Positions 2,928 to 41,562 of a stretch of 45,002 nt of DNA are shown piece after piece. The notes beneath the pieces were generated by a model. That model was given only the letters and a program-made list of their open reading frames with translations, did not search any database and had not been told where the DNA came from. Both the position numbers and the translations under genes were made by a program. The number at the start of each line of letters is the position of its first letter. Position 1 is the stretch's first letter. Source of the stretch: an uncultured Thermoplasmatales archaeon (GTDB taxonomy: Archaea > Thermoplasmatota > E2 > DHVEG-1); the NCBI GenBank assembly GCA_964628575.1, contig CAZVNH010000002.1:1-45002 (forward strand), read 5' to 3'.

Positions 2928-4001
2928 GTGGAAACAATTACTATAGACCAAGCCAGAGATATTTTACAAGCTACTTTGCAAGCAATTCTCAAAAAGAGAA
3001 TTCTTATGACTTATGTTTATACTTCTTATAATCTGTTTAATTCTTTATGGCAGGATAGAAGTAAAATTCAAGGTGGCGATAAAATAGAGGCTTATATTAC
3101 TCTTGAAGATGAAGGAAATTTCAAACATCGTGGTAATTGGGAAGAAGATACTCATAATGTAGAGAATACTGACCACACTATTACGGTGGATTGGAAAACC
3201 GCTTCGAGTAATTTTTCTTATAATGTTGTTGAAATGTCAATGAATCGTGGTGCTGCTCAGATTTATGACAAAATAAACAGCAAAATGAGTAACACTTTAC
3301 GAGAATTAGTAGATGGCATTTATGCTGCTGCTCCGTCTACTCCAACAAGTTCAACTGATAATGTTCGTCCATTTGGATTATCAGGTTGGTTTCCTTTAGG
3401 AACTGATAATTCTACTGGAAGTTGGAATGCAACAACTGCTGATTATGGAGATGGTAATACGTTTAATCCTGGTGGAATAAATGCTTCAACTTATCCACGT
3501 TGGAAATCATATTATGCAGACCATAATGGAGATTTGGATGATAGTTTGCTTGTTCTTTTGGATAGAGCAACTCGTAAATTGAATTTTGAAGGCCCATTAT
3601 TCCCGAAAGCTTTGGATGATACTGGTCGTGGTGGAGGTAAATTTACTTTATATTCCAATGATAATGTTATTGGAAGTTTAAATTTATTGTATGCTAAATC
3701 AGATGACCAAATGGGTTATAGAGTTGGTTCTCATTTTGGCAGACCCCCATTTAAAGGTATGGTATTTCAGTATTGTAGTATTCTTGATAGTGCTGATACT
3801 ACCCGATATGGGACTGACCCAATTTTCGGAATCAATCATGAACTCACTTATCCAGTAATTTTGAATGAGTGGGATTTCAAAGTAGGTAAACCAAGACAAA
3901 GAGACCAACAGCACTTAGTGCTTACGGTTGATATTGATTTGGTTTATGGTTATATCTGCGAATCACGGCAGTTCGGCGGTTTTCTAATTAGCCAGCAATA
4001 A
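2928..4001 (+). CDS. Putative major capsid protein (357 aa, GTG start)
   Basis: AAGGAG Shine-Dalgarno 7 nt before the GTG. Size and position directly after the scaffold-like gene fit a capsid protein. No motif-level identification. Confidence 0.5.
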   Translation: METITIDQARDILQATLQAILKKRILMTYVYTSYNLFNSLWQDRSKIQGGDKIEAYITLEDEGNFKHRGNWEEDTHNVENTDHTITVDWKTASSNFSYNVVEMSMNRGAAQIYDKINSKMSNTLRELVDGIYAAAPSTPTSSTDNVRPFGLSGWFPLGTDNSTGSWNATTADYGDGNTFNPGGINASTYPRWKSYYADHNGDLDDSLLVLLDRATRKLNFEGPLFPKALDDTGRGGGKFTLYSNDNVIGSLNLLYAKSDDQMGYRVGSHFGRPPFKGMVFQYCSILDSADTTRYGTDPIFGINHELTYPVILNEWDFKVGKPRQRDQQHLVLTVDIDLVYGYICESRQFGGFLISQQ

Positions 4002-5693: not shown

Positions 5694-5724
5694 AGCCGTG
5701 TGCCAGAAAACACGGCTTTTTATT
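5694..5724 (+). terminator. Rho-independent terminator
   Basis: AGCCGTGT (5694-5701) pairs with ACACGGCT (5710-5717), followed by TTTTTATT. Confidence 0.8.
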
Positions 5725-6056: not shown

Positions 6057-6142
6057 CGGAGGCAGGTTTATATATAAAGGAGATGGTTTCTGTCTCCGAG
6101 GCAGCTTAGGGCTGACGAAAGTTGGCCCTTACTGTCTTTATT
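6057..6142 (+). terminator. Tandem GC hairpins; the second is an intrinsic terminator
   Basis: CGGAGGCAG (6057-6065) pairs with CTGTCTCCG (6090-6098). GGCAG..AGGGC (6100-6112) pairs with GCCCT..CTGTC (6125-6136), followed by TTTATT. Confidence 0.55.
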
Positions 6143-18200: not shown

Positions 18201-18789
18201 TAGAATATTAGTAGGTCTTATGGTATATCCAAGAGGGGTTTTTAACCTCGCTTGGCAAAACTCTTTAAAACCTATGTATGAAGGAATAAAAACAGGAAAT
18301 TTAGGTCAAGCTTATAGAGGATTAGGAAATTTAGTTGCTTTATATATTGGAGCTTCACTTGCTCGAAGGTTGCTTTATAAACTAACTGGAAGAGAAGCTT
18401 ATGGATTAACTCAAACAATATTTGGTTATTCTCCTTTAGCTCCTGGCCCTGCTTGGTTAATTGAAAAAATGAACAGATTTAGTTGGACAGTTCAAGAAAA
18501 AGGAATGAGTGCTGCTACAGTAAATGAAATTGGTTCTACAATGGGAGATATGGCTGAATTTTTAATTCCATTTTGTGATATAGCTATTAATAGATATGAA
18601 GCTAAAAAAGATGTTCGTGGAGTAACCTTTTGGAACTTAATGAAAAAAGAATTAATGAGAAAATATTATCAAAGAACTGGAAAAAGATACACAAAAACCA
18701 ACCGTGATGATTGGCAGAAAATAGTTCATGTTTTATTTTCTGGTGGTTATGAAATTCCAGAAAAAAAGAAAAAAAGGAAGATTTGGTAA
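15226..18789 (+). CDS. Giant internal virion / ejection or tape-measure-like protein (1187 aa from ATG 15226)
   Basis: It is the largest ORF. It has Ala/Gly-rich hydrophobic segments (GAPLAAAAGATAALVTGG..., IIATGVAAITTLPA). The start is taken at the TAATG overlap rather than the upstream TTG. Confidence 0.6.
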   Translation: MAIEFKTAKPVTEPKVSFESAVPIEEAEVRKTSSLFGTFASAFGQSVINKPAVMLRGAEVYTPGKAYGLDPLLEKASITLQSLQNPEEVERIAKIAGGKLWPTGEDRKWYQIETKYIPEVLNTWAANVGDQIPLLLTTFAGRALGRIAGAPLAAAAGATAALVTGGPDPTDVATAPSVAAITSEVTAHIGGAAPLVAMEAGSFLDDANLLGIDRDIAERYARMYGIGSGVIEYAQQLWMLGRYRALSKPAQKTIIKKILSHVGGSVVEGLEEVSQQGLENKLLLKAAEEMKERNPDYEIPNLATWQGAKRAGIIATGVAAITTLPATTLSVTQQKAKQLRETRALKLYDNQQTEIDNQVKTNDTTLNPEKIAQQKTNTPTSRQRIDVQTKSRQLGYTRDQRQNLYNELTGKSWEEFNQRDAQIIVDYFDNQLNAITQSDKIGKTGLKDREQRILRGLSRTEDNFNKLIDFMISGNPLSENSNIREFQFDKYQTMAERIYKRSKKPNKPFISWARELQPARNVLYDIEMETGTNLYKNFKAAIYDSTIANQSATNLVNNVLERTGIKRRLETISVKQNEYLRWWLHDPTDEVGKSSWENMNEKTRNIGVALRNLYQSEGKYRIGLLRFKLWAEYNKKPKSVKKAQADVILKEGKEALAKGNFKDWIMKQDWVARENYYPSVREAQSLVDEIVTSLAPKDILKKFRRLPSTVPFEAYSREGKGSPIEGSVIRNTVNHFTRINTALLTMDNLVNFWKTFEGINPQQSDIDIMRDYVNNILGRGTKQKLPIRWAKKALRVFWKFYFLNPFKGAWFFTRNIMQSPAYGATQLSWKESAISLKDIALKKGATERVEDKELMWKSGISERMPVYQEWMMLEESKIRDPVRGYFANLAEEFGKVFIYSDEINRTITWLPIHRAAQRNIENLRAGKINFKQFVHRLKLDTLHPKQQIDLVNLIEEGNDREFIRQVAEYKTENIHFRYRTGLRSPSEQTLGGRILVGLMVYPRGVFNLAWQNSLKPMYEGIKTGNLGQAYRGLGNLVALYIGASLARRLLYKLTGREAYGLTQTIFGYSPLAPGPAWLIEKMNRFSWTVQEKGMSAATVNEIGSTMGDMAEFLIPFCDIAINRYEAKKDVRGVTFWNLMKKELMRKYYQRTGKRYTKTNRDDWQKIVHVLFSGGYEIPEKKKKRKIW

Positions 18790-18985: not shown

Positions 18986-19018
18986 TAGCCCATAATAATT
19001 CTGACTTACTATGGGCTA
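18986..19018. terminator. Hairpin terminator between the convergent late and early units
   Basis: TAGCCCATA (18986-18994) pairs with TATGGGCTA (19010-19018). The T-run lies on the minus-strand side and an A-run on the plus-strand side. Confidence 0.65.
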
Positions 19019-20077: not shown

Positions 20078-20848
20078 CTAATCACCATATTTTTTAACAA
20101 TAGAAATATCTACTTTAAGAGGAACTGAAAGAATTACACTATTCTCCATTATATTTTTAATTTCTTTAGCAACCCATTTCATATATTTTTCATCCACTTC
20201 ATAAACAATTTCATCATGAACAGTTAAAACTGGTTTTATTTCAATAGTTGGATATTTTAAATACCAGGTTCTAACATTATTCATTGCAATTCTTAATATA
20301 TCTGCACAAGCACTTTGAATTAAAAAATTGAATGCTTGTCTAAATGCTTTATTTCCAGTAAAATCTAATCTTCTAATTCTACCAAATATTGTTTTAATTG
20401 GTTGATGATTTTGAACTCTAAATCTTGTTTCATTTATTTTCTTTTGAACTTTTGGGTATAATTTAAAAAATGAATAAAACCATTTTTTAACTTCATCTTC
20501 ATCTCTATTCAACCTTTCTGCAACTCCCCAAGGAGAAGAGCCATAAAGAATTGGAAAATTTACTCCATTCTTACCTATATATCTTTCTTCTTTATATTTC
20601 TCTAAATGTTTATTATATTCTGGATGAGATTTATATAATTCTGGTTCAGGTATATTTAAATTAAAACAAGCATTAGCAGTTGTTAAATGTAAATCCTTGT
20701 TCTGTTTTAATGCTGTAATCATAGCACCATCTTGACAAACAGAAGCACAAACTCTAAGTTCCTGATTATCAAAATCTGCTTTTATAAAGACTTTACCTTT
20801 TGGAGCAATAAACAAATTTCTAAAATTTGTTTTCATTTCTTCCACCAT
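20078..20848 (-). CDS. Family A DNA polymerase, C-terminal half (palm/fingers motifs A, B, C)
   Basis: Motif A is KADFDNQELR, motif B is RYIGKNGVNFPILYG and motif C is LTVHDEIVYEV. Confidence 0.85.
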   Translation of the reverse strand: MVEEMKTNFRNLFIAPKGKVFIKADFDNQELRVCASVCQDGAMITALKQNKDLHLTTANACFNLNIPEPELYKSHPEYNKHLEKYKEERYIGKNGVNFPILYGSSPWGVAERLNRDEDEVKKWFYSFFKLYPKVQKKINETRFRVQNHQPIKTIFGRIRRLDFTGNKAFRQAFNFLIQSACADILRIAMNNVRTWYLKYPTIEIKPVLTVHDEIVYEVDEKYMKWVAKEIKNIMENSVILSVPLKVDISIVKKYGD

Positions 20849-21015
20849 TTATTTGTTTTTTCTAATTGTTCTCTTTTTCTCTTATAATCAATAAGAGAAA
20901 TTTTACCATAAGCAAGTTTCCATTGCAAATCCTCAGCTTCTTTTGTTATTAAAGTCGGTCGTCTTTTTGACCCTTTACCCATCGTATAAATCTTCCAATT
21001 TTTCATTAAATTCAT
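20833..21015 (-). CDS. Small ORF between the polymerase halves (probably starts at MGKGSKRRP, 20982)
   Basis: GKGSKRRP..W..AYGK is a recurrent small phage peptide pattern. It overlaps both neighbouring ORFs. Confidence 0.45.
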   Translation of the reverse strand: MNLMKNWKIYTMGKGSKRRPTLITKEAEDLQWKLAYGKISLIDYKRKREQLEKTNKWWKK

Positions 21016-21133
21016 CTTCTATAAGAAGATTTTCTTTAATAAACCTCACAACTCGCTCAGCTTCCTGCTTATCATCAAAAACCAAAACATGTTCTCCTAT
21101 AAGTTTTACTTTATTAGCTTCAACTATTTTCAT
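20975..21133 (-). CDS. Small ORF (52 aa) between the polymerase halves
   Basis: Hand translation gives MKIVEANKVKLIGEHVLVFDDKQEAERVVRFIKENLLIEDEFNEKLEDLYDG. Confidence 0.4.
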   Translation of the reverse strand: MKIVEANKVKLIGEHVLVFDDKQEAERVVRFIKENLLIEDEFNEKLEDLYDG

Positions 21134-21135
21134 TT

Positions 21136-21306
21136 TTATTCCTCATCTATATATTTTAATAAATCTTCTTCACTAAATTCTCTTAAAGTATTGTGATTAT
21201 TCATTTTAAAAATGGAAGCTGCTTCCTTTTTATTTTTAGCAACGCATTCATCTTCAAAATCTGGAAAGTAACAATGTGATTTAATTAATAAATTATATTT
21301 TTTCAT
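21136..21306 (-). CDS. Small ORF (56 aa) between the polymerase halves
   Basis: Hand translation gives MKKYNLLIKSHCYFPDFEDECVAKNKKEAASIFKMNNHNTLREFSEEDLLKYIDEE. It starts 1 nt after the stop of the polymerase N-terminal gene. Confidence 0.4.
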   Translation of the reverse strand: MKKYNLLIKSHCYFPDFEDECVAKNKKEAASIFKMNNHNTLREFSEEDLLKYIDEE

Positions 21307-21307
21307 T

Positions 21308-22378
21308 TTAAAATTCTCCTGGTCTCGGTAAATTTTGTAAATTAGGATTCCTTGAACTTAATCTTCCTGTAACTGTTCCAGTATTTTTATAATCAGTTCT
21401 TATTCGTCCATCCAATTGCACCCAATCTTCAAATGGATTAACAGATTTTTGCATAAAATCAGTAACTTTATTATATTTCCTAAGTAAATCTATAAACTTG
21501 TGTTGTCCAGCGAGTTTCTGTAATGAACTCTTAGAAACACTTAAATCTCCTCCATCAGTAAGTTCAGTTATTTTTAATCCAAGATACTTAGTTATAATTT
21601 CAACTAATTGCTTTGGGCTATTAAAATTAAATGATATAACTTCTGAAGTATCATCAAATAAATTCTTTTGAATTCCATAAGGCAATTTAGCAGATTTAAC
21701 CATCTCTAATTCTAAATTAAAAATCAAATCTTTCAACTCTTTCTTCAATGGCTCAACTTTATCCTTATCTGCAAGTATTCCATTAACCGCCAAATCTCTT
21801 AAACTAAATTGAAAAGGCATTTCTATTGAATAAAATAATTCATCTAACTTCTGATGTTGTAATTGAGGAGCAAATACTTCATAAAGTTCCCAAGTATTAA
21901 TACTATCATTAATTGCATATTCATAAAATTTTGGATGATTCTTAGGTAAACCTTCAACATCTTTATAATCAATAACTTTCTTCTTCTTTAATACATATCT
22001 TGCTAAATATTTTAATCCAGTTGGTCGATTTTCATCTAAAAGATGTGCAGCAGTTTTTGTGCAAAATATATTCTTTGTTAAATTTTTTAGTCCACATTTC
22101 CAAAAAACCATTAAATCAAATGGTGCTGAATGAAAAACAATCTTTTTTATATTATCCCAAAATTGTAAATTTATAAATCCAATTATATCTGCATATTCTT
22201 TATTCTCAAATAAATCTATATAACAAGCATTCTCTCCATTACAAAATGATATTCCAACTAATCTTAAATCATCATATCTTAAAGATGTTGTTTCAGTATC
22301 GACAGCAAATTTATCTGATTGATTATTATCAAACCAATCTTTAGTTTCTTTAAATATTGTTATAAATTGTCTATTCAA
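21308..22378 (-). CDS. Family A DNA polymerase, N-terminal half (3'-5' exonuclease + thumb)
   Basis: ExoI is AVDTETTSL, ExoII is HSAPFDLMVF and ExoIII is YAINDSINTWELY. It ends at TGRLSSRNPNLQNLP, which lies just before motif A in intact enzymes. Confidence 0.85.
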   Translation of the reverse strand: MNRQFITIFKETKDWFDNNQSDKFAVDTETTSLRYDDLRLVGISFCNGENACYIDLFENKEYADIIGFINLQFWDNIKKIVFHSAPFDLMVFWKCGLKNLTKNIFCTKTAAHLLDENRPTGLKYLARYVLKKKKVIDYKDVEGLPKNHPKFYEYAINDSINTWELYEVFAPQLQHQKLDELFYSIEMPFQFSLRDLAVNGILADKDKVEPLKKELKDLIFNLELEMVKSAKLPYGIQKNLFDDTSEVISFNFNSPKQLVEIITKYLGLKITELTDGGDLSVSKSSLQKLAGQHKFIDLLRKYNKVTDFMQKSVNPFEDWVQLDGRIRTDYKNTGTVTGRLSSRNPNLQNLPRPGEF

Positions 22379-22412: not shown

Positions 22413-22958
22413 TCATAATTCAATATCACTTTCAACCTCATTTCCCCAAACATCCCAACCAGGAGTTTTTTGTCGAGCAAAAAGTTCTATTTTAGACTGC
22501 ATTGGAAACATTTCTGTTATTCTATTTCTAATAGTATTTGGTTTCTGACTATGTTTTCTTTTTCTTTCAGATAAAAATTGTTTAATATTTCTACTTCCTC
22601 TTGGTTGTGGAATCTTTCCCTTCTTAGCAATTAAACAAATCTCAACAGATGATAATGTATAATATCCTGGATTTGTTATTTCTTTTTCCCAAACAAAAGC
22701 AATAGTAGAATATTCAAATCCCCATTTTTCCATTAATGGAAATGCTTCATTTAGTTTTGGACCTGTAGTCCATAAAAATAACAAACAATTCTTATCTGCA
22801 ATCAACCAAATTGGTAATTTATATAAATCTTTCATAGACATATACTTATATGGAGTTTGATTTTCTCCAGATAATAAACTTTCTGGAGTTAAACATCTAC
22901 CAGCATTATATTCCCAAGGCGGGTCAGCGTATATAATTTGATATTTTTTATTATTCAT
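22413..22958 (-). CDS. MT-A70 family DNA N6-adenine methyltransferase
   Basis: IIYADPPWEYN (the DPPW catalytic motif), with typical size. Confidence 0.85.
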   Translation of the reverse strand: MNNKKYQIIYADPPWEYNAGRCLTPESLLSGENQTPYKYMSMKDLYKLPIWLIADKNCLLFLWTTGPKLNEAFPLMEKWGFEYSTIAFVWEKEITNPGYYTLSSVEICLIAKKGKIPQPRGSRNIKQFLSERKRKHSQKPNTIRNRITEMFPMQSKIELFARQKTPGWDVWGNEVESDIEL

Positions 22959-23199
22959 CTTCTAAAAATTCTTCTTTACAATATGTATCACAAAAATAAA
23001 ATCCAGTCTCTTCATCACATTCAATACAATCTTCACATCCTATCCGACCACAGTTCTCACACACTTCAAAATCTTTAAAACAACTATAACAAAAAGCATT
23101 TAAACAAAGTTCACACATACAAAAATTAAGTTCATCTTCACTTAAATAATTATCACAATGTGGATTAGAACATTCTATTTTAGGATATTTCATTTTCAT
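22951..23199 (-). CDS. Cysteine-rich zinc-binding protein (82 aa)
   Basis: Many CxxC dyads (CELC, CYSC, CENC, CEDC...). Overlaps both neighbours. Confidence 0.6.
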   Translation of the reverse strand: MKMKYPKIECSNPHCDNYLSEDELNFCMCELCLNAFCYSCFKDFEVCENCGRIGCEDCIECDEETGFYFCDTYCKEEFLEDE

Positions 23200-23389
23200 A
23201 CCGCCAGATTTCTAAACCAAGTTCCAAACCTAAAAACAAAAATGAAACTTCTCTACTTTTATATCTTCCTGCATTCTTAAAAGCCCACCATTTTATTGCA
23301 AAAGGAAGAGCTAAATATCCTGAATGAAGAAATGCTCTCCAATTAACACTTAACGTAATTTCTGGATTTTTACCAAATTGAATTTGCAT
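23180..23389 (-). CDS. Hypothetical protein (69 aa)
   Basis: ORF in an operon context. No family recognised. Confidence 0.45.
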   Translation of the reverse strand: MQIQFGKNPEITLSVNWRAFLHSGYLALPFAIKWWAFKNAGRYKSREVSFLFLGLELGLEIWRYENEIS

Positions 23390-23395
23390 AATAGT

Positions 23396-23539
23396 TTACT
23401 CCCAATTTAGTTGTTCCAAAGCATATTTGTTAAGAGCTTCTTGTGCTTCCTCTTCAGTATCAAATGGGCCATGTTTAAAAGCCCACGTTTCATCCCAAAA
23501 ATACCATTTACCGTCTTTTCCTTTATGAATCGGACTCAT
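23396..23539 (-). CDS. Small hypothetical protein (47 aa)
   Basis: Hand translation gives MSPIHKGKDGKWYFWDETWAFKHGPFDTEEEAQEALNKYALEQLNWE. TAATG coupling. Confidence 0.4.
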   Translation of the reverse strand: MSPIHKGKDGKWYFWDETWAFKHGPFDTEEEAQEALNKYALEQLNWE

Positions 23540-32910: not shown

Positions 32911-33082
32911 TTATTTCCTCTTAATTTATCATCACATTCTATACAAATAAAATCACCATTAGGATAAGGTTTACCATTTTCTTCCCGTGTTGTTATATTA
33001 TCTAAATCTCTTACTCGATTAACAAACAAACCACTTCCTTGTTTCACACTTCGACCACATTCATTACAAATTTCAACTTTCA
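32907..33082 (-). pseudogene. Small zinc-ribbon gene disrupted by a 1-nt frameshift
   Basis: MKVEICND runs into a stop. The next frame, offset by 1 nt, continues CGRSVKQGSGLFVNRV...GDFICIECDDKLRGNK. Joining them restores a CxxC...CxxC ribbon. Confidence 0.4.
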
Positions 33083-33252
33083 TTATTTATTCTCCAATTT
33101 ACAACCACTTCGTAAATTATTTTTACCTTTTGATTTTATATAATAATCTTTTAATCTCATTCTATAATCTCTTTTATCAATTATAAAACGATGATTAAAA
33201 CTTCTTAAATCATCACTTAAAAATGCTGGTCGTTCACAACTATTATTCAACA
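33082..33252 (-). CDS. Small hypothetical protein (56 aa)
   Basis: Hand translation gives MLNNSCERPAFLSDDLRSFNHRF.... Overlap-coupled on both sides. Confidence 0.35.
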
Positions 33253-33530: not shown

Positions 33531-34364
33531 TCAATCCAAATCTGTTGGCACAAGCCAGCCACTATCAACATCTATTCCACAATTAGAACATTTATCATCA
33601 ATAATTTCCACAATGTTTCCACAATAAAAACATTCTGCTTTTTTATATTTTGCTTCTAAAAGATTTTTACAGCTTTCACAAACTAATAAATTTCTATCTT
33701 CCAGCAAGTCTAATTCTTCCTCTGGATAAAATCCATTACAAATATCACAACTATTCCAAATTATTTTCTCATCTTCTTCTGTATTTTCTAAATCATACAC
33801 ATATCCATTATATCTCCAAGTAGAATTGGAAAATCCATTGGAAAACCAAACTCCATTTTTCCAATATCCCATATCTTCATTTATTATAATATAATGATTA
33901 TTTGAATTTAGAAAAATAAGTTTATTATACCATCCACAATACTTGCTTATAAACTTCATAGCTTCAACGGAATACATAAAAGATTTTGGCATAGTTTTTA
34001 ATACTCTGTAATTAAAATCCATTGTATCAGAATAAAAATTATTCCCCAATCCACTAAAAATCCCATTGTGAGCAAAGCCAACTTCTTCATTATTTTTAAC
34101 AAGAAATGGATGACAGTTTGCACTATCTTTTTTGCCAGAAGTAGCCAATCTAAAATGAATTACAAAATTACTTTTCGGATTTTCTCTTTCAGCTTGTCTA
34201 AAAGCTTTGTAGAATTTTCTAAATCCAAAATATCCTTTTTGAATTACAAGCTTTCTATTTTCAGTAAACATAAAACCTGCACCATCATCATTAGTATCAA
34301 ACCCATTTTTAAGCTCTCTACGAGTAATTACTGAATCAGCAGTTTTTAATATGGCTAAACACAT
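33531..34364 (-). CDS. Class-II (Ntn) glutamine amidotransferase with a C-terminal zinc-ribbon array
   Basis: Starts MCLAIL (the Cys2 nucleophile). Contains HFRLATSG..NCHPF..GFAHNGI. Four C-terminal CxxC dyads: CDIC, CESC, CFYC, CSNC. Confidence 0.75.
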   Translation of the reverse strand: MCLAILKTADSVITRRELKNGFDTNDDGAGFMFTENRKLVIQKGYFGFRKFYKAFRQAERENPKSNFVIHFRLATSGKKDSANCHPFLVKNNEEVGFAHNGIFSGLGNNFYSDTMDFNYRVLKTMPKSFMYSVEAMKFISKYCGWYNKLIFLNSNNHYIIINEDMGYWKNGVWFSNGFSNSTWRYNGYVYDLENTEEDEKIIWNSCDICNGFYPEEELDLLEDRNLLVCESCKNLLEAKYKKAECFYCGNIVEIIDDKCSNCGIDVDSGWLVPTDLD

Positions 34365-34367
34365 ATT

Positions 34368-35561
34368 TTAATAAAATCCCTTATTTTTTAACCAGCGATA
34401 TAGATTATTAAATTCTTTAGAATAATTTTTAACATAATCTAAAAATGATGCTACATTTACATATCGAGACGGAGTTTCGAATGTATAATTTACTAAAGCT
34501 TGTAAAAATTCAATGTTTTTCCAAAAACTTAAAGGATTCAAAGTTCCCCTAAAAATTCTAATCTCTATTGTATCAGGATTTTGCAAATTTACTGCACAAT
34601 GTCGTTCATGATTTCCATTTTTATTTTTCGCTTTATAAATCAAATCTCTTCCTTTATTTTCATCAACAACTTTATCTAAAGTCGCCCATTGGTTTAAATT
34701 ACTTTTGTTTCTTTGACTAATCTTTAAAATAAATTCTGGATTTTCGTAGAAAAACTTTAACAACCTATATAAATGCCACGTTCCAAAATAATTTTTAGAT
34801 AAATGTATATGGATTCCACAAGAATCCGTCTTAAAACTTATAAAACCACGTTTGCTAATAGTTAAAATCTTTAACCATTTATCAGCATTTTCCTTTAACC
34901 ATTGATAAGTAGCAGGATGAGACACAATTTCAAAACCATTATATAAACTGCCATCTTCTTTAGCAAATACAAATTCAGGTAAATTATCTGTTTCTTTTTT
35001 AATATCTCCACTGCTTTTTTCAACTTCTAATTCAATACCAAAAAATAATTTTTTTTCTGATATTGTTTTTTCGTATTTTCCTAAATAAAAATTAAAACAA
35101 GGTCTATAATTATATGAGTGCAAATTTTCAATAATCTGATGTCCTTCTATTCTATCCATACATCTTTCGCATAGATGACATTGTTCCTCACTACTCCAAT
35201 GTATCTCACCAGCAAGATAATACTCATCACAGTTTTCGCAATAAGCAAAATAACTTTCAAAACAGTTATTGCAATAATAATGAGAGTGCCATAATACCAT
35301 ATCATCGAAAGAACAAATATCCCCACAATTAACACATTCTCTATAATTTTCTGCACAGGGTTGGCACAAAAATCTTCCATCTATAATAACACAATCATTT
35401 TTATAGAACAGTTCTCCACAATCTTCACATTCTACTAACAATTCTTCTGCACAATTATCACAGTAAATTTTACCATCAAATTCTGCTTTATCAGTTTCGC
35501 TAAAAATGGAAGTATGACAATTATCACAGTAGCATATTATTTTTTCTTTATTATCGCTCAT
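34368..35561 (-). CDS. Amidoligase_2 (glutamine synthetase/GCS2-like COOH-NH2 ligase) with an N-terminal zinc-ribbon array
   Basis: Contains FFGIELEVE, EDGSLYNGFEIVSHP and CGIHIHL. Eight N-terminal CxxC dyads. The start is taken at ATG 35561, because the upstream part of the track ORF overlaps a 26-codon TM peptide ORF in another frame. Confidence 0.7.
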   Translation of the reverse strand: MSDNKEKIICYCDNCHTSIFSETDKAEFDGKIYCDNCAEELLVECEDCGELFYKNDCVIIDGRFLCQPCAENYRECVNCGDICSFDDMVLWHSHYYCNNCFESYFAYCENCDEYYLAGEIHWSSEEQCHLCERCMDRIEGHQIIENLHSYNYRPCFNFYLGKYEKTISEKKLFFGIELEVEKSSGDIKKETDNLPEFVFAKEDGSLYNGFEIVSHPATYQWLKENADKWLKILTISKRGFISFKTDSCGIHIHLSKNYFGTWHLYRLLKFFYENPEFILKISQRNKSNLNQWATLDKVVDENKGRDLIYKAKNKNGNHERHCAVNLQNPDTIEIRIFRGTLNPLSFWKNIEFLQALVNYTFETPSRYVNVASFLDYVKNYSKEFNNLYRWLKNKGFY

Positions 35562-35813
35562 ATAACTTAATAACCCGCTAACGTGCAAGCTATGAAAATG
35601 GCTATAAAAATAACTATTATCCAAACGAACCAATCGTAATGATACATTATTTTGATTCCTAATTATTTTTTCTTAAAACTATCACAAACTTTATAGCGAC
35701 TTGTTACTACATTATATTTTTTACACACAGCGTCAATAAGCAATCCTTTATACTTAAAATATCTACATATTTCACATAATTCTAATCTATGGTTAGGTGG
35801 TTTTTTCACTACT

Positions 35814-36496: not shown

Positions 36497-36723
36497 ACTC
36501 TTTACCCCTTAACAATTTGAAAAAACTTTTACAAGACTTAACATTAAACAAAATATAAAAATCACGATTGTTAAAAGGTGTTTTTGCCTTACCGTATTCC
36601 TTAACACTATTGATATTTGAAAGAACTTTATAATTGCTGCTGGTTTTTTTAAGGTAAACCAGCAAACCTTACCGAAGAGAGGGGTGTGAATCATTTTACT
36701 TTTTTACTCTATTTTATAATAAC

Positions 36724-36748
36724 ACGGGGGATTTATTCCCCCGTTTTA
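36724..36748 (+). terminator. Perfect 7-bp GC hairpin followed by T4
   Basis: ACGGGGG (36724-36730) pairs with CCCCCGT (38-44), followed by TTTT. Confidence 0.45.
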
Positions 36749-37075
36749 AGGAGGAGAGAGTAAATGATGACAATTCACTTGTCAAAGAACTACAGTATTA
36801 GTATAACACTACTATATTATACAAATCCAATCCCACCATAACACAATCCAATGACCGCCATAACCTTTTATGACACAAGGCAGGTATCTACGACTTGTAT
36901 AGTATCGTTTAAAAATTTTCATATCCCCACTATACCAAATCGGAATTAACAAATCAAGAAAAAACTGAGAAAAATTAAAAAATTGTTAAAAACTTTTGAA
37001 TTTGTTAGTTATCTATTTAACAAATAATGAGGATTGCGTAGTATTAGAGAATCTTATAATAGTATAAGCAGGAAT

Positions 37076-37111
37076 AACGAGGGTTGGTATAATCCCCCCT
37101 TGTTGTTTTTT
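37076..37111 (+). terminator. Orientation-specific rho-independent terminator (plus strand)
   Basis: AACGAGGG (37076-37083) pairs with CCCTTGTT (37097-37104), with one G.U pair that would be a C.A mismatch on the other strand. Followed by G + T6. Confidence 0.55.
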
Positions 37112-37422
37112 GTAAACATCAATGTTGATTTTTTACAACATTGGCCTGCCTTTACTTAAAATCTATGCCACAATACAACACACTACATATAGTGTGCCCA
37201 TTTAATCAACAATACACAAGATATAGTATGTCTTTATTTACTTAAAATCAACGGGGGAGGTAGGTTGGATTATCGGACATTATGGGCAGGGGTGGTATCC
37301 ACCAAGAAAATTATTTTTAAAATTTTGAAAACTTTTCTTAAATAAAAAATCTCCATTTTTAAGTCAATATTCCAGATTTTTAAACTTTTTTAAAAAATTC
37401 TTAAAAAATCCAAAGATTTTCC

Positions 37423-37451
37423 TTGACAAATGACTTTAAATATGGTATAAT
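37423..37451 (+). promoter_or_regulatory. Consensus sigma-70 promoter (TTGACA-17-TGGTATAAT), rightward
   Basis: TTTTCCTTGACAaatgactttaaatatggTATAAT. Confidence 0.7.
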
Positions 37452-37529
37452 ATATAGGTGAAATGGAAATAAAAATAAAATACTTTAAAATTTTTGGGAA
37501 CTTTTTTATTAATTATTTGTCTAATATAT

Positions 37530-37709
37530 ATGTATTGCCCTAATTGTGGACAACCTGTTGATGAGATAAAATGTAATTCTCCAGTAGAGATTTTTTGTCC
37601 AAATTGTAATGAATCCTTCTGGATTGAAGAAGAAACTCCCTATGGTCAAATGCTCCAGGATGGATTTGAGCTTATTAATCCTTATGAGGAAAATAGTAAT
37701 TATAACTAA
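37530..37709 (+). CDS. Small zinc-ribbon protein (59 aa from ATG 37530)
   Basis: MYCPNCG...FCPNCNESFW. Confidence 0.55.
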   Translation: MYCPNCGQPVDEIKCNSPVEIFCPNCNESFWIEEETPYGQMLQDGFELINPYEENSNYN

Positions 37710-37721
37710 TTTAATGATTAT

Positions 37722-37826
37722 ATGGATTATTTTACTAAAATACTGTTAGTATCATTAATTATTTCAGCTATAGTAATTATACCGATTGTAGCAATTATAT
37801 TAGCTATAATAGCTATTTTTAAATAA
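37722..37826 (+). CDS. 34-aa hydrophobic peptide
   Basis: Hand translation gives MDYFTKILLVSLIISAIVIIPIVAIILAIIAIFK. Confidence 0.3.
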   Translation: MDYFTKILLVSLIISAIVIIPIVAIILAIIAIFK

Positions 37827-37862
37827 ATTTTAAAAAATATTCAAATTTTTATGATTTTTTCC

Positions 37863-37891
37863 TTGACTTTTAACTTATAATATGTTATAAT
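37863..37891 (+). promoter_or_regulatory. Consensus sigma-70 promoter (TTGACT-17-TGTTATAAT), rightward
   Basis: TTTTTTCCTTGACTtttaacttataatatgtTATAAT. Confidence 0.7.
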
Positions 37892-37897
37892 ATAAGG

Positions 37898-38087
37898 GTA
37901 AAATCAAATGTTCTTTTTTAAGTAAATAGAGTGAAAAAGTGCGTCCAGGAAATCCCGAATACCTCGCAATACAGGATGCCCTGTTCTCATAAGCGTAGTG
38001 CTGAAATCTGGCAGGGTGTGAGGATGGAAACAGAGAATTTTTAAATAACCATCGCTAATAAGGGATTTTAAAGGAGAAAACAGGGTT
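37898..38087 (+). ncRNA. Candidate structured RNA / leader (unclassified) at the head of the late operon
   Basis: GC-enriched with no credible ORF. Nested helices: 37949-56 with 38062-69, 37962-68 with 38017-23, and 37971-75 with 37980-84. Confidence 0.35.
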
Positions 38088-38298
38088 ATGAAAAACAAGC
38101 CTTTAACCCACTCGACCTATATATTATTAATATATAATTATTACTTATTCAAAATATTTAATATTATATATATCTCTGTTAAAAATCCTGTATTAGATAG
38201 AAGTTAAGTAAATCAAAAACTATTTAATCTTGTTAAGTGAATATCTAACAAATACCTGAAATTAGCTAAAAAATAAGGGTAAGGATAAAAAATAATAA

Positions 38299-38484
38299 AT
38301 GATTTGCTCTTTTTGTGGTGAAAACAAGCCTTCCTCCCAATTTTGGGATAGGGAAGATAGAAATGAGAAATATAGCTGGTGTATTGAATGTTGTTTAAAA
38401 CAAAATCGAAATAAGAATTATCCTTCAATTAAAAAAAGAGGGTTTGGACAATTTTATCCTGGATTTAAGAATTTTAAAATTTAA
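38299..38484 (+). CDS. Small zinc-ribbon protein (61 aa)
   Basis: CSFCG...CIECC. Confidence 0.5.
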   Translation: MICSFCGENKPSSQFWDREDRNEKYSWCIECCLKQNRNKNYPSIKKRGFGQFYPGFKNFKI

Positions 38485-38490
38485 AAGTTT

Positions 38491-38754
38491 ATGAATACTG
38501 AAAAAACAATTCGAGATTTTTTAGATTTTTGGCTTCCAGAAGGGGAACTTCGGTTGTCAAAAACTTTTGATAAAAAATCCTTTCAATTTACACATAATAT
38601 TGGTTCTCGATTTTTTATACGAAAAGATACGAAATTAACTCAACCTGAGCTTGAAAATCAAATTTGTGTATTTTTCTTAAAATGTTTAGAAGATGAATTT
38701 GTTGTTTTAGATGAATTAAAAAAGAAAATTGAAGTTATTTTAGATAATGATTAA
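38491..38754 (+). CDS. Hypothetical protein (87 aa)
   Basis: ORF in the rightward unit. No family recognised. Confidence 0.55.
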   Translation: MNTEKTIRDFLDFWLPEGELRLSKTFDKKSFQFTHNIGSRFFIRKDTKLTQPELENQICVFFLKCLEDEFVVLDELKKKIEVILDND

Positions 38755-38808: not shown

Positions 38809-39024
38809 ATGGAAAATTTTGAAAAATTACAAAAAACAATAAATTGGCTTAATAGACATCCAAGAACTTTGTCAGGAACTATTTTTAATTTTAGAAGAAT
38901 TGGACGAAATGAAATTTGTCCATTATGTGATAGTGGATTGAAATATAAAAAATGTTGTTTGGTTTCGGAAAATCTGAAGAATCGGTATATTGAAAACAAA
39001 TATAAAGAAAGTTTAAATGGCTAA
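38809..39024 (+). CDS. SEC-C motif small protein (71 aa)
   Basis: CPLCDSGLKYKKCC matches the SEC-C metal-binding motif. Confidence 0.55.
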   Translation: MENFEKLQKTINWLNRHPRTLSGTIFNFRRIGRNEICPLCDSGLKYKKCCLVSENLKNRYIENKYKESLNG

Positions 39025-39601
39025 AGGTGGAGGAAAAATTAGAACAGGTTCGATAGTTCATAATTCTGATTTACTTCCTATGGCAGAGAAATTGGCAGAA
39101 TTAGGAATTCCAAGAAAGACTATAGCATTTGTTTTGGGTTTAAATGGAAAAGCTTTTGCTAAATTATGGGATTCTTCTGGTGATTTGCGTAAAGCAATAG
39201 AATCTGGTGAAAAGTTAGCTCAGACTGATTTTATTGCTACAATTATTAAAGAAGCTGCTGGTTATGATTATAAGTTAAAAAAAACTACTTATAAATATTT
39301 AGACCCTACAGATGAAAAGCCAATAAGAGTTAAAGTTGGAGAAACTATTGAAACTCGACATCAACCAGCAAATGCTGCCCTTGCTACTTTTTTGGCTTGT
39401 AATTTAATGCCTAATGATTTCCGTAAGGAAACTCAAATTAAAATTGATAAGAGAACTCAATCTCTTATAGTTGGAGGAGATTTAGGAACAGAACATTTAC
39501 GTAAATTGGCTGGCTCATTTATGGAATTAGCTGATAAACAAGATAAAAAGCAAATTGAATCAAAAGAAGTAGAGAATGAAACTAAGTCTCGAAAATCCTA
39601 A
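39017..39601 (+). CDS. Putative terminase small subunit
   Basis: 194 aa. Overlaps the TerL start. HTH-like segment IPRKTIAFVLGLNGKAF. Confidence 0.45.
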   Translation: MAKGGGKIRTGSIVHNSDLLPMAEKLAELGIPRKTIAFVLGLNGKAFAKLWDSSGDLRKAIESGEKLAQTDFIATIIKEAAGYDYKLKKTTYKYLDPTDEKPIRVKVGETIETRHQPANAALATFLACNLMPNDFRKETQIKIDKRTQSLIVGGDLGTEHLRKLAGSFMELADKQDKKQIESKEVENETKSRKS

Positions 39602-40499
39602 AGATTTCTATAAAATTATTCCAAAAGATATAGGAGAAAATTTATCTTTTCGTAAAGATTTATACAATCTTCTTGCTGTCGATGGTGGATTTAAAGAAGC
39701 ATTTTTGGAATTATGTTGGCAAAAACCATCAATATTTTTTAGTTCTTGTATGTTTACTTTTAATCCTAAAAATGCACCAGGATTTAGAAATCCCCCATTT
39801 ATTTTAAGACCTCAACAAGTTATTGTTGTTGATGAGTTGCACAAAGCAATTATTGAGGGATATGATTGTGCTTTAGATAAAACAAGGGATGAAGGAGCAA
39901 CTGTAATTTTATGTAGTTTATTTGATTTTCATTGGCTTGTAACAAATCAATCAATGTTTTTGCTTGGTTCTCGAAAAGAAGAATATGTTGATAAGTCAAC
40001 TGAAATTCAAGGAGACAGGGTTATAGGAGACCATAAATGTCTATTTCATAAAGTTCTTTATGGAATTATGACTCTTCCTAAATGTTTAAGACCAAAATAT
40101 TTTAAGAAAACTCATTTACATTTTGAAAATTTAGAAAATGGTTCTTGTATTGATGGTGAAGCAACAAATGAATCGTTTGGTGGTGGAGATAGAAGAACTG
40201 CTGTTGGAGTTGATGAATTTGGTTTAATAGAATCAAGAATTGCAGAAACTATTCGTCATACGTTATCTGATGTTTCTGATTGTATTATTTATAATTCTAC
40301 TCAAGGACCAGCAGCAGGACATCCATATACGAGATTGTTAAATTCTGGAAAATTAAAAATATTGGAATTGCCTTGGGAAAAAAATCCTGAAAAAAATCAG
40401 GGACTGTATCGAAGTAATGCTTATGGAGAAGTTGAAATAGTAGATATTCCATATTGGGAAAAAAGAATTCCAAATTTAAAAGAATATGCTAAAAATTAA
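39576..40499 (+). CDS. terL: Terminase large subunit, ATPase domain (first of two frames)
   Basis: Walker A-like DKTRDEGAT, Walker B AVGVDEFG and coupling motif NSTQG. Confidence 0.8.
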   Translation: MKLSLENPKDFYKIIPKDIGENLSFRKDLYNLLAVDGGFKEAFLELCWQKPSIFFSSCMFTFNPKNAPGFRNPPFILRPQQVIVVDELHKAIIEGYDCALDKTRDEGATVILCSLFDFHWLVTNQSMFLLGSRKEEYVDKSTEIQGDRVIGDHKCLFHKVLYGIMTLPKCLRPKYFKKTHLHFENLENGSCIDGEATNESFGGGDRRTAVGVDEFGLIESRIAETIRHTLSDVSDCIIYNSTQGPAAGHPYTRLLNSGKLKILELPWEKNPEKNQGLYRSNAYGEVEIVDIPYWEKRIPNLKEYAKN

Positions 40500-41562
40500 A
40501 CAACAAAATTTACCAGAAGAATATCAAAATTTGCTAATTTTTGATGGTGGGGAAAGTAATTTTGGTGGATATAGGTCTCCTTGGTATGATGCAGAATGTA
40601 GAAGAAGAGATAAACAGGATGTAGCTCGAAATATTGATAGACGTGCAGTAGAACTTGGAGATAGATTTTTTGATGAGAGCATTTGTAAGCAAATTGAAAA
40701 TAAATATATAAGACCCCCTGACTTTTCTGGTGAAATTATTTTTAATAAAAGTAGAAACGGCAAAATTTGTAATGTTAAATTTGAAAATAATTATGGACGA
40801 AAAAGATTTAATTGGTGGGGAGAATTAAAATCTGGAAGGCCAAGCCAGCTTTATAATTATGTGGTTGCTGTTGACCCTTCAGGAGGAACTGGAGCAGCTA
40901 ATAGTATAATTAGTGTTTATAATGTGAATCTTTTTGAAAAAGTTGGAATATTTGCTTGTCCAAATACTGCATCTGAAAGTTTGGCTGATTATGCTATAGC
41001 AATTTGTAAATGGGTTGGTGGAGCAACATCCAAATCTTTGCTTGGATGGGAAGCAAACGGAATAGGAGCTACTTTTGGAAGGAGAGTTTTATTCCATAAT
41101 TATCCTCTTGTTTATATAAGTAGAGATGAAAAAGCAAGAACTAAAAAACGGAAAAATAGATATGGATGGTGGTCAACTTCTGGACAAAATGGAACTAAAT
41201 TTGATTTATTGACTGAACTTCGTGCTGCTTTAAGTGAAAGTCTTAAAGAAAAAAATGATATTCAATATATTGCTTTAATTATTCATGATATTGAAACTTT
41301 AAGAGAATTAAGAGATTATAAATTTTTAAGTTCTAATGAGATTGGGCCTTCGAGTGGAATTGATGATTCTACTGGAGCAAGATATTCTCATGGAGATAGA
41401 GTAATAGCAGATGGAATTGGTGTTTTATTAATGACACATCAACCAAAAGCTGTTGTTCAGGAAATTAAGAATTATCCTAAAAATAGTTTTGGATATAGAT
41501 TTCAGCAGTGGAAGGAAAAGAAAGAAAAAAATAAACGAACTCAACGGAGATATTTATATTAA
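40486..41562 (+). CDS. terL: Terminase large subunit, RNase H-like nuclease domain (second frame)
   Basis: VVAVDPSGGTGAANS, LLGWEANGIG and HGDRVIADG supply the acidic residues. There is no Shine-Dalgarno before ATG 40486. Confidence 0.8.
   Translation: MLKIKQQNLPEEYQNLLIFDGGESNFGGYRSPWYDAECRRRDKQDVARNIDRRAVELGDRFFDESICKQIENKYIRPPDFSGEIIFNKSRNGKICNVKFENNYGRKRFNWWGELKSGRPSQLYNYVVAVDPSGGTGAANSIISVYNVNLFEKVGIFACPNTASESLADYAIAICKWVGGATSKSLLGWEANGIGATFGRRVLFHNYPLVYISRDEKARTKKRKNRYGWWSTSGQNGTKFDLLTELRAALSESLKEKNDIQYIALIIHDIETLRELRDYKFLSSNEIGPSSGIDDSTGARYSHGDRVIADGIGVLLMTHQPKAVVQEIKNYPKNSFGYRFQQWKEKKEKNKRTQRRYLY

Follow-up and report, generated by a model that had tools for sequence, protein, structure and literature searches.

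A strong sigma-70 promoter with a lineage-specific untranslated leader, possibly carrying one conserved cis-acting hairpin, in an environmental podovirus-like phage

The put RNA of phage HK022 binds the zinc-binding domain of the RNA polymerase beta' subunit and suppresses transcription termination without protein factors. It is about 70 nucleotides (nt) long, consists of two adjacent stem-loops and is present in two paralogous copies of similar sequence, one past each early promoter (PMC9378689). Together with lambda nut, the lambda PR' leader, the T7 early leader and the phi29 pRNA, it is among the described systems closest to the element reported here, the untranslated leader that follows promoter P2 at 37863-37891 of contig CAZVNH010000002.1. 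This contig, analysed over its full 45,002 nt and called the window below, was assembled as a circle with a 55-bp terminal overlap and represents an entire phage genome (45 kb, 30.6% G+C); the phage is novel, environmental and podovirus-like, from an uncharacterised clade. An earlier note on this DNA had drawn, behind the promoter, a G+C-enriched RNA of about 190 nt with nested helices, for which put-like antitermination or a riboswitch-type role was proposed. The overall outcome of the analysis is a strong ordinary promoter with a lineage-specific leader, possibly with one conserved cis-acting hairpin, namely the two-part inner hairpin of the leader (helices P2 and P3), for which a tentative counterpart was found in the leader of the nearest relative, contig L002.

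Like putL and putR of HK022, the leader stands just past a strong sigma-70 phage promoter, has irregular stems with internal loops and comes with no evident dedicated antiterminator protein; unlike put, it is present in one copy, the element as drawn is 121 nt long with a closing helix, and one 62-nt hairpin has a counterpart. With lambda nut (boxA and boxB, with N), it has in common a leader hairpin behind a strong promoter which could recruit a factor to the elongating polymerase. In our reading of the sequence, the 5' arm of helix P3, GCCCUG, happens to match the boxB arm and the upstream GUUCUUUUUUAA is boxA-like. The 8-bp stem and 24-nt loop of the hairpin differ, however, from the 5-bp stem and 5-nt loop of boxB, and nut sites follow both early promoters. 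No N-like protein was identified here. The lambda PR' leader (6S RNA, 194 nt; Q) is similar in that the late operon begins with a constitutive promoter and a leader of ~190 nt; in lambda, on the other hand, the leader ends in tR' and Q lies just upstream, whereas here the leader has no terminator and the upstream open reading frames (ORFs) encode a zinc ribbon and a peptide.

As is generally known, the early leader of T7 (R0.3 RNase III site) has tandem strong sigma-70 promoters, several hundred non-coding nt and an internal-loop hairpin ahead of the first genes, a layout found here as well; the present phage, too, is podovirus-like and encodes a DNA polymerase A and a primase-helicase of the T7 type. 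The RNase III sites are nevertheless near-continuous duplexes of ~20 bp, unlike the present hairpin with its 6 + 8 bp and one-sided 10-nt loop. The phi29 pRNA (RF00044) is likewise an ORF-free RNA of 120-170 nt behind a strong promoter of a podovirus, with paired ends closing a three-way junction, and structure kept during sequence divergence is a further trait shared with its family. In contrast to phi29, no cmscan match at E <= 10 was obtained, packaging here is by terS/TerL with a family A polymerase in the genome, and the outer helix and three-way junction are not kept in the nearest relative. Phages of the phi29 type have no terS and package protein-primed DNA.

Promoter P2 is, as judged from its sequence, a genuine and very strong host-type sigma-70 promoter. 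The TTGACT-17-TATAAT arrangement reported earlier is present with its TG extension (at 37883-84), exceeds chance expectation and is kept in the nearest relative. Perfect 12/12 sigma-70 sites number three in the genome against 0.15 expected from shuffles, and the pattern TTTTCC-TTGACA-N17-TATAAT is found at four near-identical sites, +37423 (promoter P1), +37863 (promoter P2), -33466 (33466-33438) and -27928 (27928-27900), all of them intergenic and oriented along their genes, with two facing each way. Promoter P2 shows 79% identity over 48 nt with promoter P1 (37417-37464), and both align to one promoter of the nearest relative (L002 2915-3021). Promoter P2 and its leader sit where the leftward and rightward gene blocks of the genome diverge, and the description of this site as the head of the late operon is topologically correct, with the reservation that the perfect promoter P1 precedes it and that several small genes come before terS at 39017. 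Both gene blocks appear to depend on host RNA polymerase acting at consensus promoters. The features of the region are listed in the table.

Table. Promoters, predicted RNA features and repeats of the leader region (positions in the window).
Feature	Position	Strand	Remark
Promoter P1: perfect TTGACA-17-TATAAT with TG	37423..37451	+	upstream paralogue of promoter P2, 440 nt away
Promoter P2: TTTTCC, TTGACT 37863-37868, 17-nt spacer ending TGT, TATAAT 37886-37891	37857..37891	+	11/12 consensus positions plus TG
Untranslated leader	37898..38087	+	to first ATG preceded by a Shine-Dalgarno sequence; probably on to 38298; start placed from the -10
A+U-rich 5' hairpin; loop carries a TTAAGTAAAT copy at 37918-37927	37908..37944	+	prediction (minimum free energy, ensemble)
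Outer helix P1: GAAAUCCC 37949-56 with GGGAUUUU 38062-69, 8 bp, one G.U	37949..38069	+	probability 0.92-1.0
Inner hairpin, two-part (helices P2 and P3)	37962..38023	+	comparative support, alone among the leader parts
Second hairpin P4: 5 bp, 21-nt A+U-rich loop	38023..38053	+	probability 0.86-0.96
AAGGAG 38071-76, 11-nt gap, 39-codon ORF from ATG 38088	38071..38207	+	ORF doubtful
TTAAGTNAAT copies 38204-13 and 38233-42	38204..38242	+	directly after (TA)-rich tract at ~38108-38190

Transcription of the leader, with a start near 37898, is predicted from promoter P2. The leader is at least 190 nt long and probably extends over ~400 nt to the 61-codon gene at 38299. The G+C enrichment described behind the promoter was confirmed, the leader core having 42-46% G+C against 30.6% for the genome, which places it in the top 3% of 120-nt windows, and among these top windows it alone falls outside a long ORF. 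The view that neither strand holds a credible ORF was upheld by codon usage, with a negative log-likelihood for a 37-codon GTG ORF, a 64-codon minus-strand ORF and the 39-codon ORF, and positive scores for the genuine small genes nearby. The AAGGAG and the 39-codon ORF behind it were both found where the earlier note had placed them, but the ORF carries no coding signal; its product is hydrophobic, it has 21% G+C and an intergenic-like composition, and no homologue of it was found in the nearest relative. No intrinsic terminator was found on the + strand between 37892 and 39017. In a check for a type I toxin-antitoxin system, which would combine a small hydrophobic toxin ORF behind a long structured 5' UTR with an antisense RNA gene, promoter-like and terminator-like sites on the minus strand were at background and the minus strand folded with z = -0.35. 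Upstream of the leader lie a 59-71-aa zinc ribbon ORF, matching zinc ribbons alone, and a 34-aa hydrophobic peptide.

All the helices drawn by hand have their sequences where they were drawn. The nested three-helix architecture that they make up, on the other hand, is no more stable than that of shuffled sequences, with minimum free energy (MFE) z-scores of 0.03 for 37895-38090, -1.43 for the 129-nt core (18/200 shuffles being equally stable) and -1.32 for the 401-nt leader; in a genome-wide scan of 130-nt windows, 26% were as stable against their own shuffles. The ensemble is well defined, which in itself is not evidence of function. In the inner hairpin, helix P2 pairs CCUCGCA 37962-68 with UGUGAGG 38017-23 at an ensemble probability of ~0.5, and helix P3 pairs 37978-85 with 38010-17 at 0.98. 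The 5' internal loop AAUACAGGAU stands between the two helices, and the 24-nt apical loop contains a mini-hairpin (AGC 37992-94/GCU 38000-02) followed by GA. Two alternative pairings had been proposed inside helix P2, of which the short hairpin ACAGG 37971-75/CCUGU 37980-84 is present in the sequence with an ensemble probability of 0.01, whereas the long-range pairing of CCCUG 37979-83 with CAGGG 38012-16 dominates the ensemble (0.98). The minus strand of the leader folds worse than the + strand. Four G.U pairs make the inner-hairpin helix specific to the + strand and suggest RNA of that strand and not duplex DNA.

The nearest relative was reached through the portal protein, homologues of which number in the hundreds at ~50% identity, with one at 78% (P0003), whose contigs (L001-L008 and L099-L108) form one clonal population. 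The order in L002 is that of the window, with a promoter, a small hydrophobic ORF, a second promoter (TTGACA-17-TATAAT at 2994-3028), a leader and a homologue of the 87-aa gene (53% identity). The L002 leader (3029-3525) comprises 497 nt with no ORF of at least 40 aa and z = -3.0 (also in L001, L003 and L099-L108), and no homologue of it was found elsewhere. In 10 samples, leaders of this type are identical except for 1-2 base differences in four of them, all outside the hairpin; since the hairpin is identical in the 10 samples, the variants of this population add no covariation. Outer helix P1 is not kept, L002 having direct and not inverted AGGAUUU repeats at both arm positions, and neither hairpin P4 nor the link to the Shine-Dalgarno sequence has a counterpart in L002. 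Both phages therefore retain several hundred untranslated nt behind a homologous promoter with a sequence that has turned over, and the leader occupies a fast-evolving slot bounded by the conserved promoter on one side and, on the other, by the first gene that is conserved (87 aa, at 38491). Most of the 190 nt, outer helix and second hairpin included, is lineage-specific and without demonstrable fold.

The possible conservation of the inner hairpin was assessed with three covariance models, built respectively on the whole element (R1), on the inner hairpin from window 37958-38027 alone (R2) and on two sequences (R3), and with a related set of ~95 phage loci of the wider family (961 kb). The whole-element model gave nothing in these 961 kb and, with filters off, aligned its inner domain to L002 3130-3256 with 7.8 bits, which equals the background (~0.37 per kb in the rest of the window). 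With the inner-hairpin model, the top match in the whole 13.5-kb L002 locus was at 3143-3211 on the + strand, in the syntenic leader, with 12.3 bits and E = 0.12 for 27 kb, compared with a background of one unrelated match that good in 90 kb of the window genome; for a 0.5-kb one-strand target defined in advance, this corresponds to P ~0.004. In the resulting comparison, helix P2 has 6-7 bp in the window and 6 bp in L002, the 5' internal loop (9-10 nt) reads AAUACAGGAU in the window and AAAGAGGGU in L002, helix P3 (7-8 bp) is GCCCUGUU/GGCAGGGU in the window and GAAACCU/AGGUUUC in L002, and the apical loop has the form AGC-N5-GCU-GA in both. Five pairs of helix P3 are altered on both sides and neither hairpin is bulged on its 3' side; 97% of the cells are paired across the two sequences, in an alignment that was itself fitted to the structure.

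Because the inner hairpin has this plausible counterpart in the syntenic L002 leader, a cis-acting leader RNA element is possible, and we infer, tentatively, that the hairpin could well be functional, either in the control of elongation or in RNA processing or stability. Transcription would start near 37898, cross the leader and continue to the small genes, terS, the terminase, the portal and the structural genes, and the hairpin (37962-38023) would serve as a cis-acting recognition site within the nascent leader RNA, for which the candidate partners are the elongating polymerase, an elongation factor (anti-Rho included), a phage protein or a processing nuclease. It would in this manner set the share of promoter P2 transcription that survives the long untranslated stretch to the packaging and structural genes.

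Several results weigh against a functional hairpin. The comparison involves just two distinct sequences, and the P value is better put at 0.01-0.02, since the hairpin sub-model was chosen after the alignment of the whole model had been seen. Of the apparent double changes, one half do not count as covariation, since those of helix P2 reflect a one-base shift of the same CCUC/GAGG helix. The MFE fold of L002 differs, the window-like fold lying 2 kcal/mol above it, and the folding energy of the window leader is within the ordinary range. At the level of sequence, alignment from leader to leader gave P = 0.81 and from core to core P = 0.06. The two-sequence model, finally, found no further member in ~950 kb of related loci and the IMG/VR pattern match. 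Its matches in L069-L072 lie inside TerL and were rejected.

The absence of a known RNA family, as asserted in the earlier note, stood up to cmscan against Rfam. Over the whole window nothing reached the gathering threshold of a family in Rfam 15, and at E <= 10 the interval 37700-38400 gave three chance matches to eukaryotic small nucleolar RNA and microRNA families, none of which falls on the element; Rfam searches of five related loci (gathering threshold) and of the L002 leader (permissive E) returned nothing relevant. Of the homologous regions that BLASTN and nhmmer, with tblastx in addition, were expected to collect, the promoter was recovered in the nearest relative, but no leader alignment was obtained and nothing was found in the other loci. 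BLASTN against the INPHARED phages and PLSDB plasmids gave no match. Scans of IMG/VR with exact and degenerate patterns were empty for five patterns and gave one chance match, in a high-G+C contig; the JGI metagenomes gave one 24-nt chance match only, and in the GTDB genomes a lone 21-nt match, again by chance, fell within an ORF of high G+C. A single query made of the stop-free pieces of the element in all six frames had no match among 5.8 billion proteins, tblastx of both leaders against all loci for a decayed gene gave nothing, and terS had no homologue but itself. Synteny anchors in IMG/VR (a single portal protein and the 87-aa gene) gained no locus. No second copy of the element was found in the genome by self-BLAST or with the whole-element and inner-hairpin models.

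The leader might instead be a functionless spacer in a hypervariable accessory slot, with a G+C-rich core that is left over or acquired and a likeness to L002 that is coincidental, an explanation which is serious although somewhat unlikely. It fits the chance-level z-scores shared with about a quarter of the genome windows, the lack of a homologue in every search, the background score of the whole-element model in L002 and the insignificant sequence alignment to the L002 leader, as well as the fact that the leader of promoter P1 measures just ~40-70 nt and that the other three family promoters are all short-leadered. It does not account for the only G+C-enriched genome window outside long ORFs, for the top L002 match of the hairpin model falling exactly in the syntenic leader, or for several hundred ORF-free nt being kept in both phages. 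An unlikely explanation places the function in the DNA, as a control region or replication origin at ~37150-38250, in which TTAAGTNAAT would provide repeated binding sites for a protein and the (TA)-rich tract would be unwound. The strong promoters would serve to activate or prime such a region, with the G+C-rich block either as a bystander or as the stabiliser of an R-loop. TTAAGTNAAT does occur in 5 copies in 37236-38242 against 0.1 expected (0/5000 local shuffles reach 3), one repeat copy being at about +21 of the promoter P2 transcript, all three exact genome copies of TTAAGTAAAT are within the region, and the L002 leader also has two TTAAGTNAAT copies (3361-3415) adjoining a (TA)-rich tract. 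Divergence of transcription and of GC skew coincide at the leader region, with strongly folded noncoding DNA just upstream. The motif was however defined after inspection of the sequence, and the GC skew cannot be separated from the direction of the genes. None of the phage proteins was identified as an initiator, and the G.U pairs of the hairpin favour RNA. A control region or origin in the DNA is in any case compatible with an RNA role for the hairpin.

A self-sufficient put-like antiterminator, by which the nascent leader would make host RNA polymerase terminator-resistant over the 26-kb unit, had been considered plausible and is now very unlikely. The position just past a strong sigma-70 promoter and at the head of a long, terminator-containing unit is in its favour, and the phage proteins include no recognisable RNA polymerase, sigma factor or antiterminator domain; because most of these proteins match no family, the lack of a visible antiterminator is weak evidence. 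The irregular stem with its large purine-rich internal loop also resembles the put stems, but the element is not of the ~70-nt two-stem type and its second hairpin is unconserved, it is single, none following promoter P1 or the two leftward promoters, in place of two paralogues, and put serves early and not late transcription (PMC9378689). The intrinsic terminators to which the antitermination proposal referred do exist in the downstream unit, as hairpins at 5694-5717 and 6108-6129 after a 376-aa ORF and a 102-aa ORF, which are probably the capsid gene and the gene next to it. Terminators behind phage capsid genes are a common arrangement and are leaky; those cited are of this usual kind and need no dedicated antiterminator. 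The riboswitch-type leader, or a thermosensor, in which the outer helix would sequester the Shine-Dalgarno sequence of the 39-codon ORF depending on ligand or temperature, is extremely improbable. The core can be drawn as a three-way junction closed by helix P1 and abutting AAGGAG, the GG of which is paired with 37945-46 in the ensemble (probability ~0.9; 0.08-0.09 unpaired). No riboswitch or aptamer family was matched at E <= 10, however, and the fold is not unusually stable; since the outer helix and its Shine-Dalgarno link lack an L002 counterpart and the 39-codon ORF, with its negative coding score, looks spurious, the riboswitch-type expression platform is removed.

If the hairpin is functional, as we tentatively prefer, it would make up a new sequence family among the cis-acting leader RNAs of phages, in a clade with mostly unmatched proteins, and would offer an entry to how a phage with consensus promoters times or protects the transcription of its structural genes. 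It is decidedly unlikely that the hairpin and its L002 counterpart open a new class of leader RNA in phages, as its first two members, with antitermination or anti-Rho activity; the hairpin would then load onto host RNA polymerase, or recruit a factor to it, and license the ~26-kb packaging and structural unit, so that an uncharacterised environmental clade of podovirus-like phages would have a solution of the put or nut kind. If the hairpin is not functional, which is about as likely, what is left is a strong promoter of the ordinary kind and a leader specific to its lineage, and the lesson would be a methodological one: where the genome is A+T-rich, nested helices drawn by hand and a local enrichment in G+C do not amount to evidence of a structured RNA.

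Other candidate explanations were tried and rejected. The tail ...GGAUGGAAAC resembles the end of a type I-C CRISPR repeat, but it comes with a 24-nt loop and no match to a CRISPR direct-repeat family. Coding under another genetic code was discarded, the structural ORFs being intact under code 11, and so was a conserved small peptide across the inner hairpin, the translations of which are unrelated between the two phages. The 24-30-nt inverted repeats I2/I5, which could have delimited an invertible segment, are at the level of chance for A+T-rich DNA.

The surrounding genome consists of two divergent blocks. The replication genes form the leftward block, from 19332 to ~36497, with a family A DNA polymerase, a DnaB-like helicase, a primase, SSB, an exonuclease, and an amidoligase with a glutamine amidotransferase. 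The rightward block, from ~37494, contains small genes, among them the 61-codon gene (38299) and the 87-aa gene (38491) downstream of the leader and before terS (39017-39601, phrog_309), then the split large terminase and a 588-aa protein, which from gene order is probably the portal, Pfam and PHROG giving no match. It wraps round the circle into the structural genes, the last of which ends at 18789, and makes up a unit of ~26 kb in which nearly all proteins belong to no PHROG or Pfam family. ARAGORN found no transfer RNA or transfer-messenger RNA in the window.

The large terminase (39576-41562) is represented by overlapping ORFs of 307 and 358 aa, in place of the single 691-aa ORF of the nearest relative, for which a frameshift, a sequencing error or programmed recoding could account. 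The DNA polymerase A gene (20078-22378, minus strand) is likewise in two ORFs (21308-22378 and 20078-20848) that match adjoining parts of the PHROG profile; the 460-nt gap between them, in which windows reach z of about -4 to -4.5, may be an intron, and an Rfam search gave no group I or II match. A DNA methyltransferase ORF (22413-23538 region, minus strand; 181 aa) covers just positions 119-297 of a 329-position profile, with a ~580-nt ORF-poor gap upstream of it, a possible sign of a split or truncated gene. At the start of the leftward block (33531-35633, minus strand), the amidoligase-like gene (421 aa, PF12224) adjoins the class II glutamine amidotransferase-like gene (277 aa), a pair that may indicate a nucleotide- or protein-modification system.

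Outside the leader, the ~900-nt noncoding stretch between the divergent blocks (36500-37420) is far more structured than the leader itself, with z = -5.6 for 36640-37320 on the + strand, while the windows starting at 36661 and 37051 reach -4.9 and -4.3. A strong hairpin is found within it at 36724-36744, and Rfam gave no match even at permissive E-values. A conserved noncoding block precedes the first promoter (37255-37305; L002 2590-2650) and reads GGTAGGT...GGGGTGGTATC(C/A)ACC; the GGKTGGTAT motif recurs at 37082, and the TATCCAC core of the block resembles, in our reading, a DnaA box. The TTAAGTNAAT cluster, which spans 37150-38242 around both rightward promoters and in the leader, may correspond to sites for a regulator or a replication initiator. 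Among all 130-nt windows of the genome, structure is most significant at 32957-33086 on the minus strand (z = -5.9 at only 20% G+C), in the small-gene cluster behind the -33466 promoter. Where the two blocks converge, a 13-bp hairpin between T-runs (18986-19018) is probably a bidirectional terminator.

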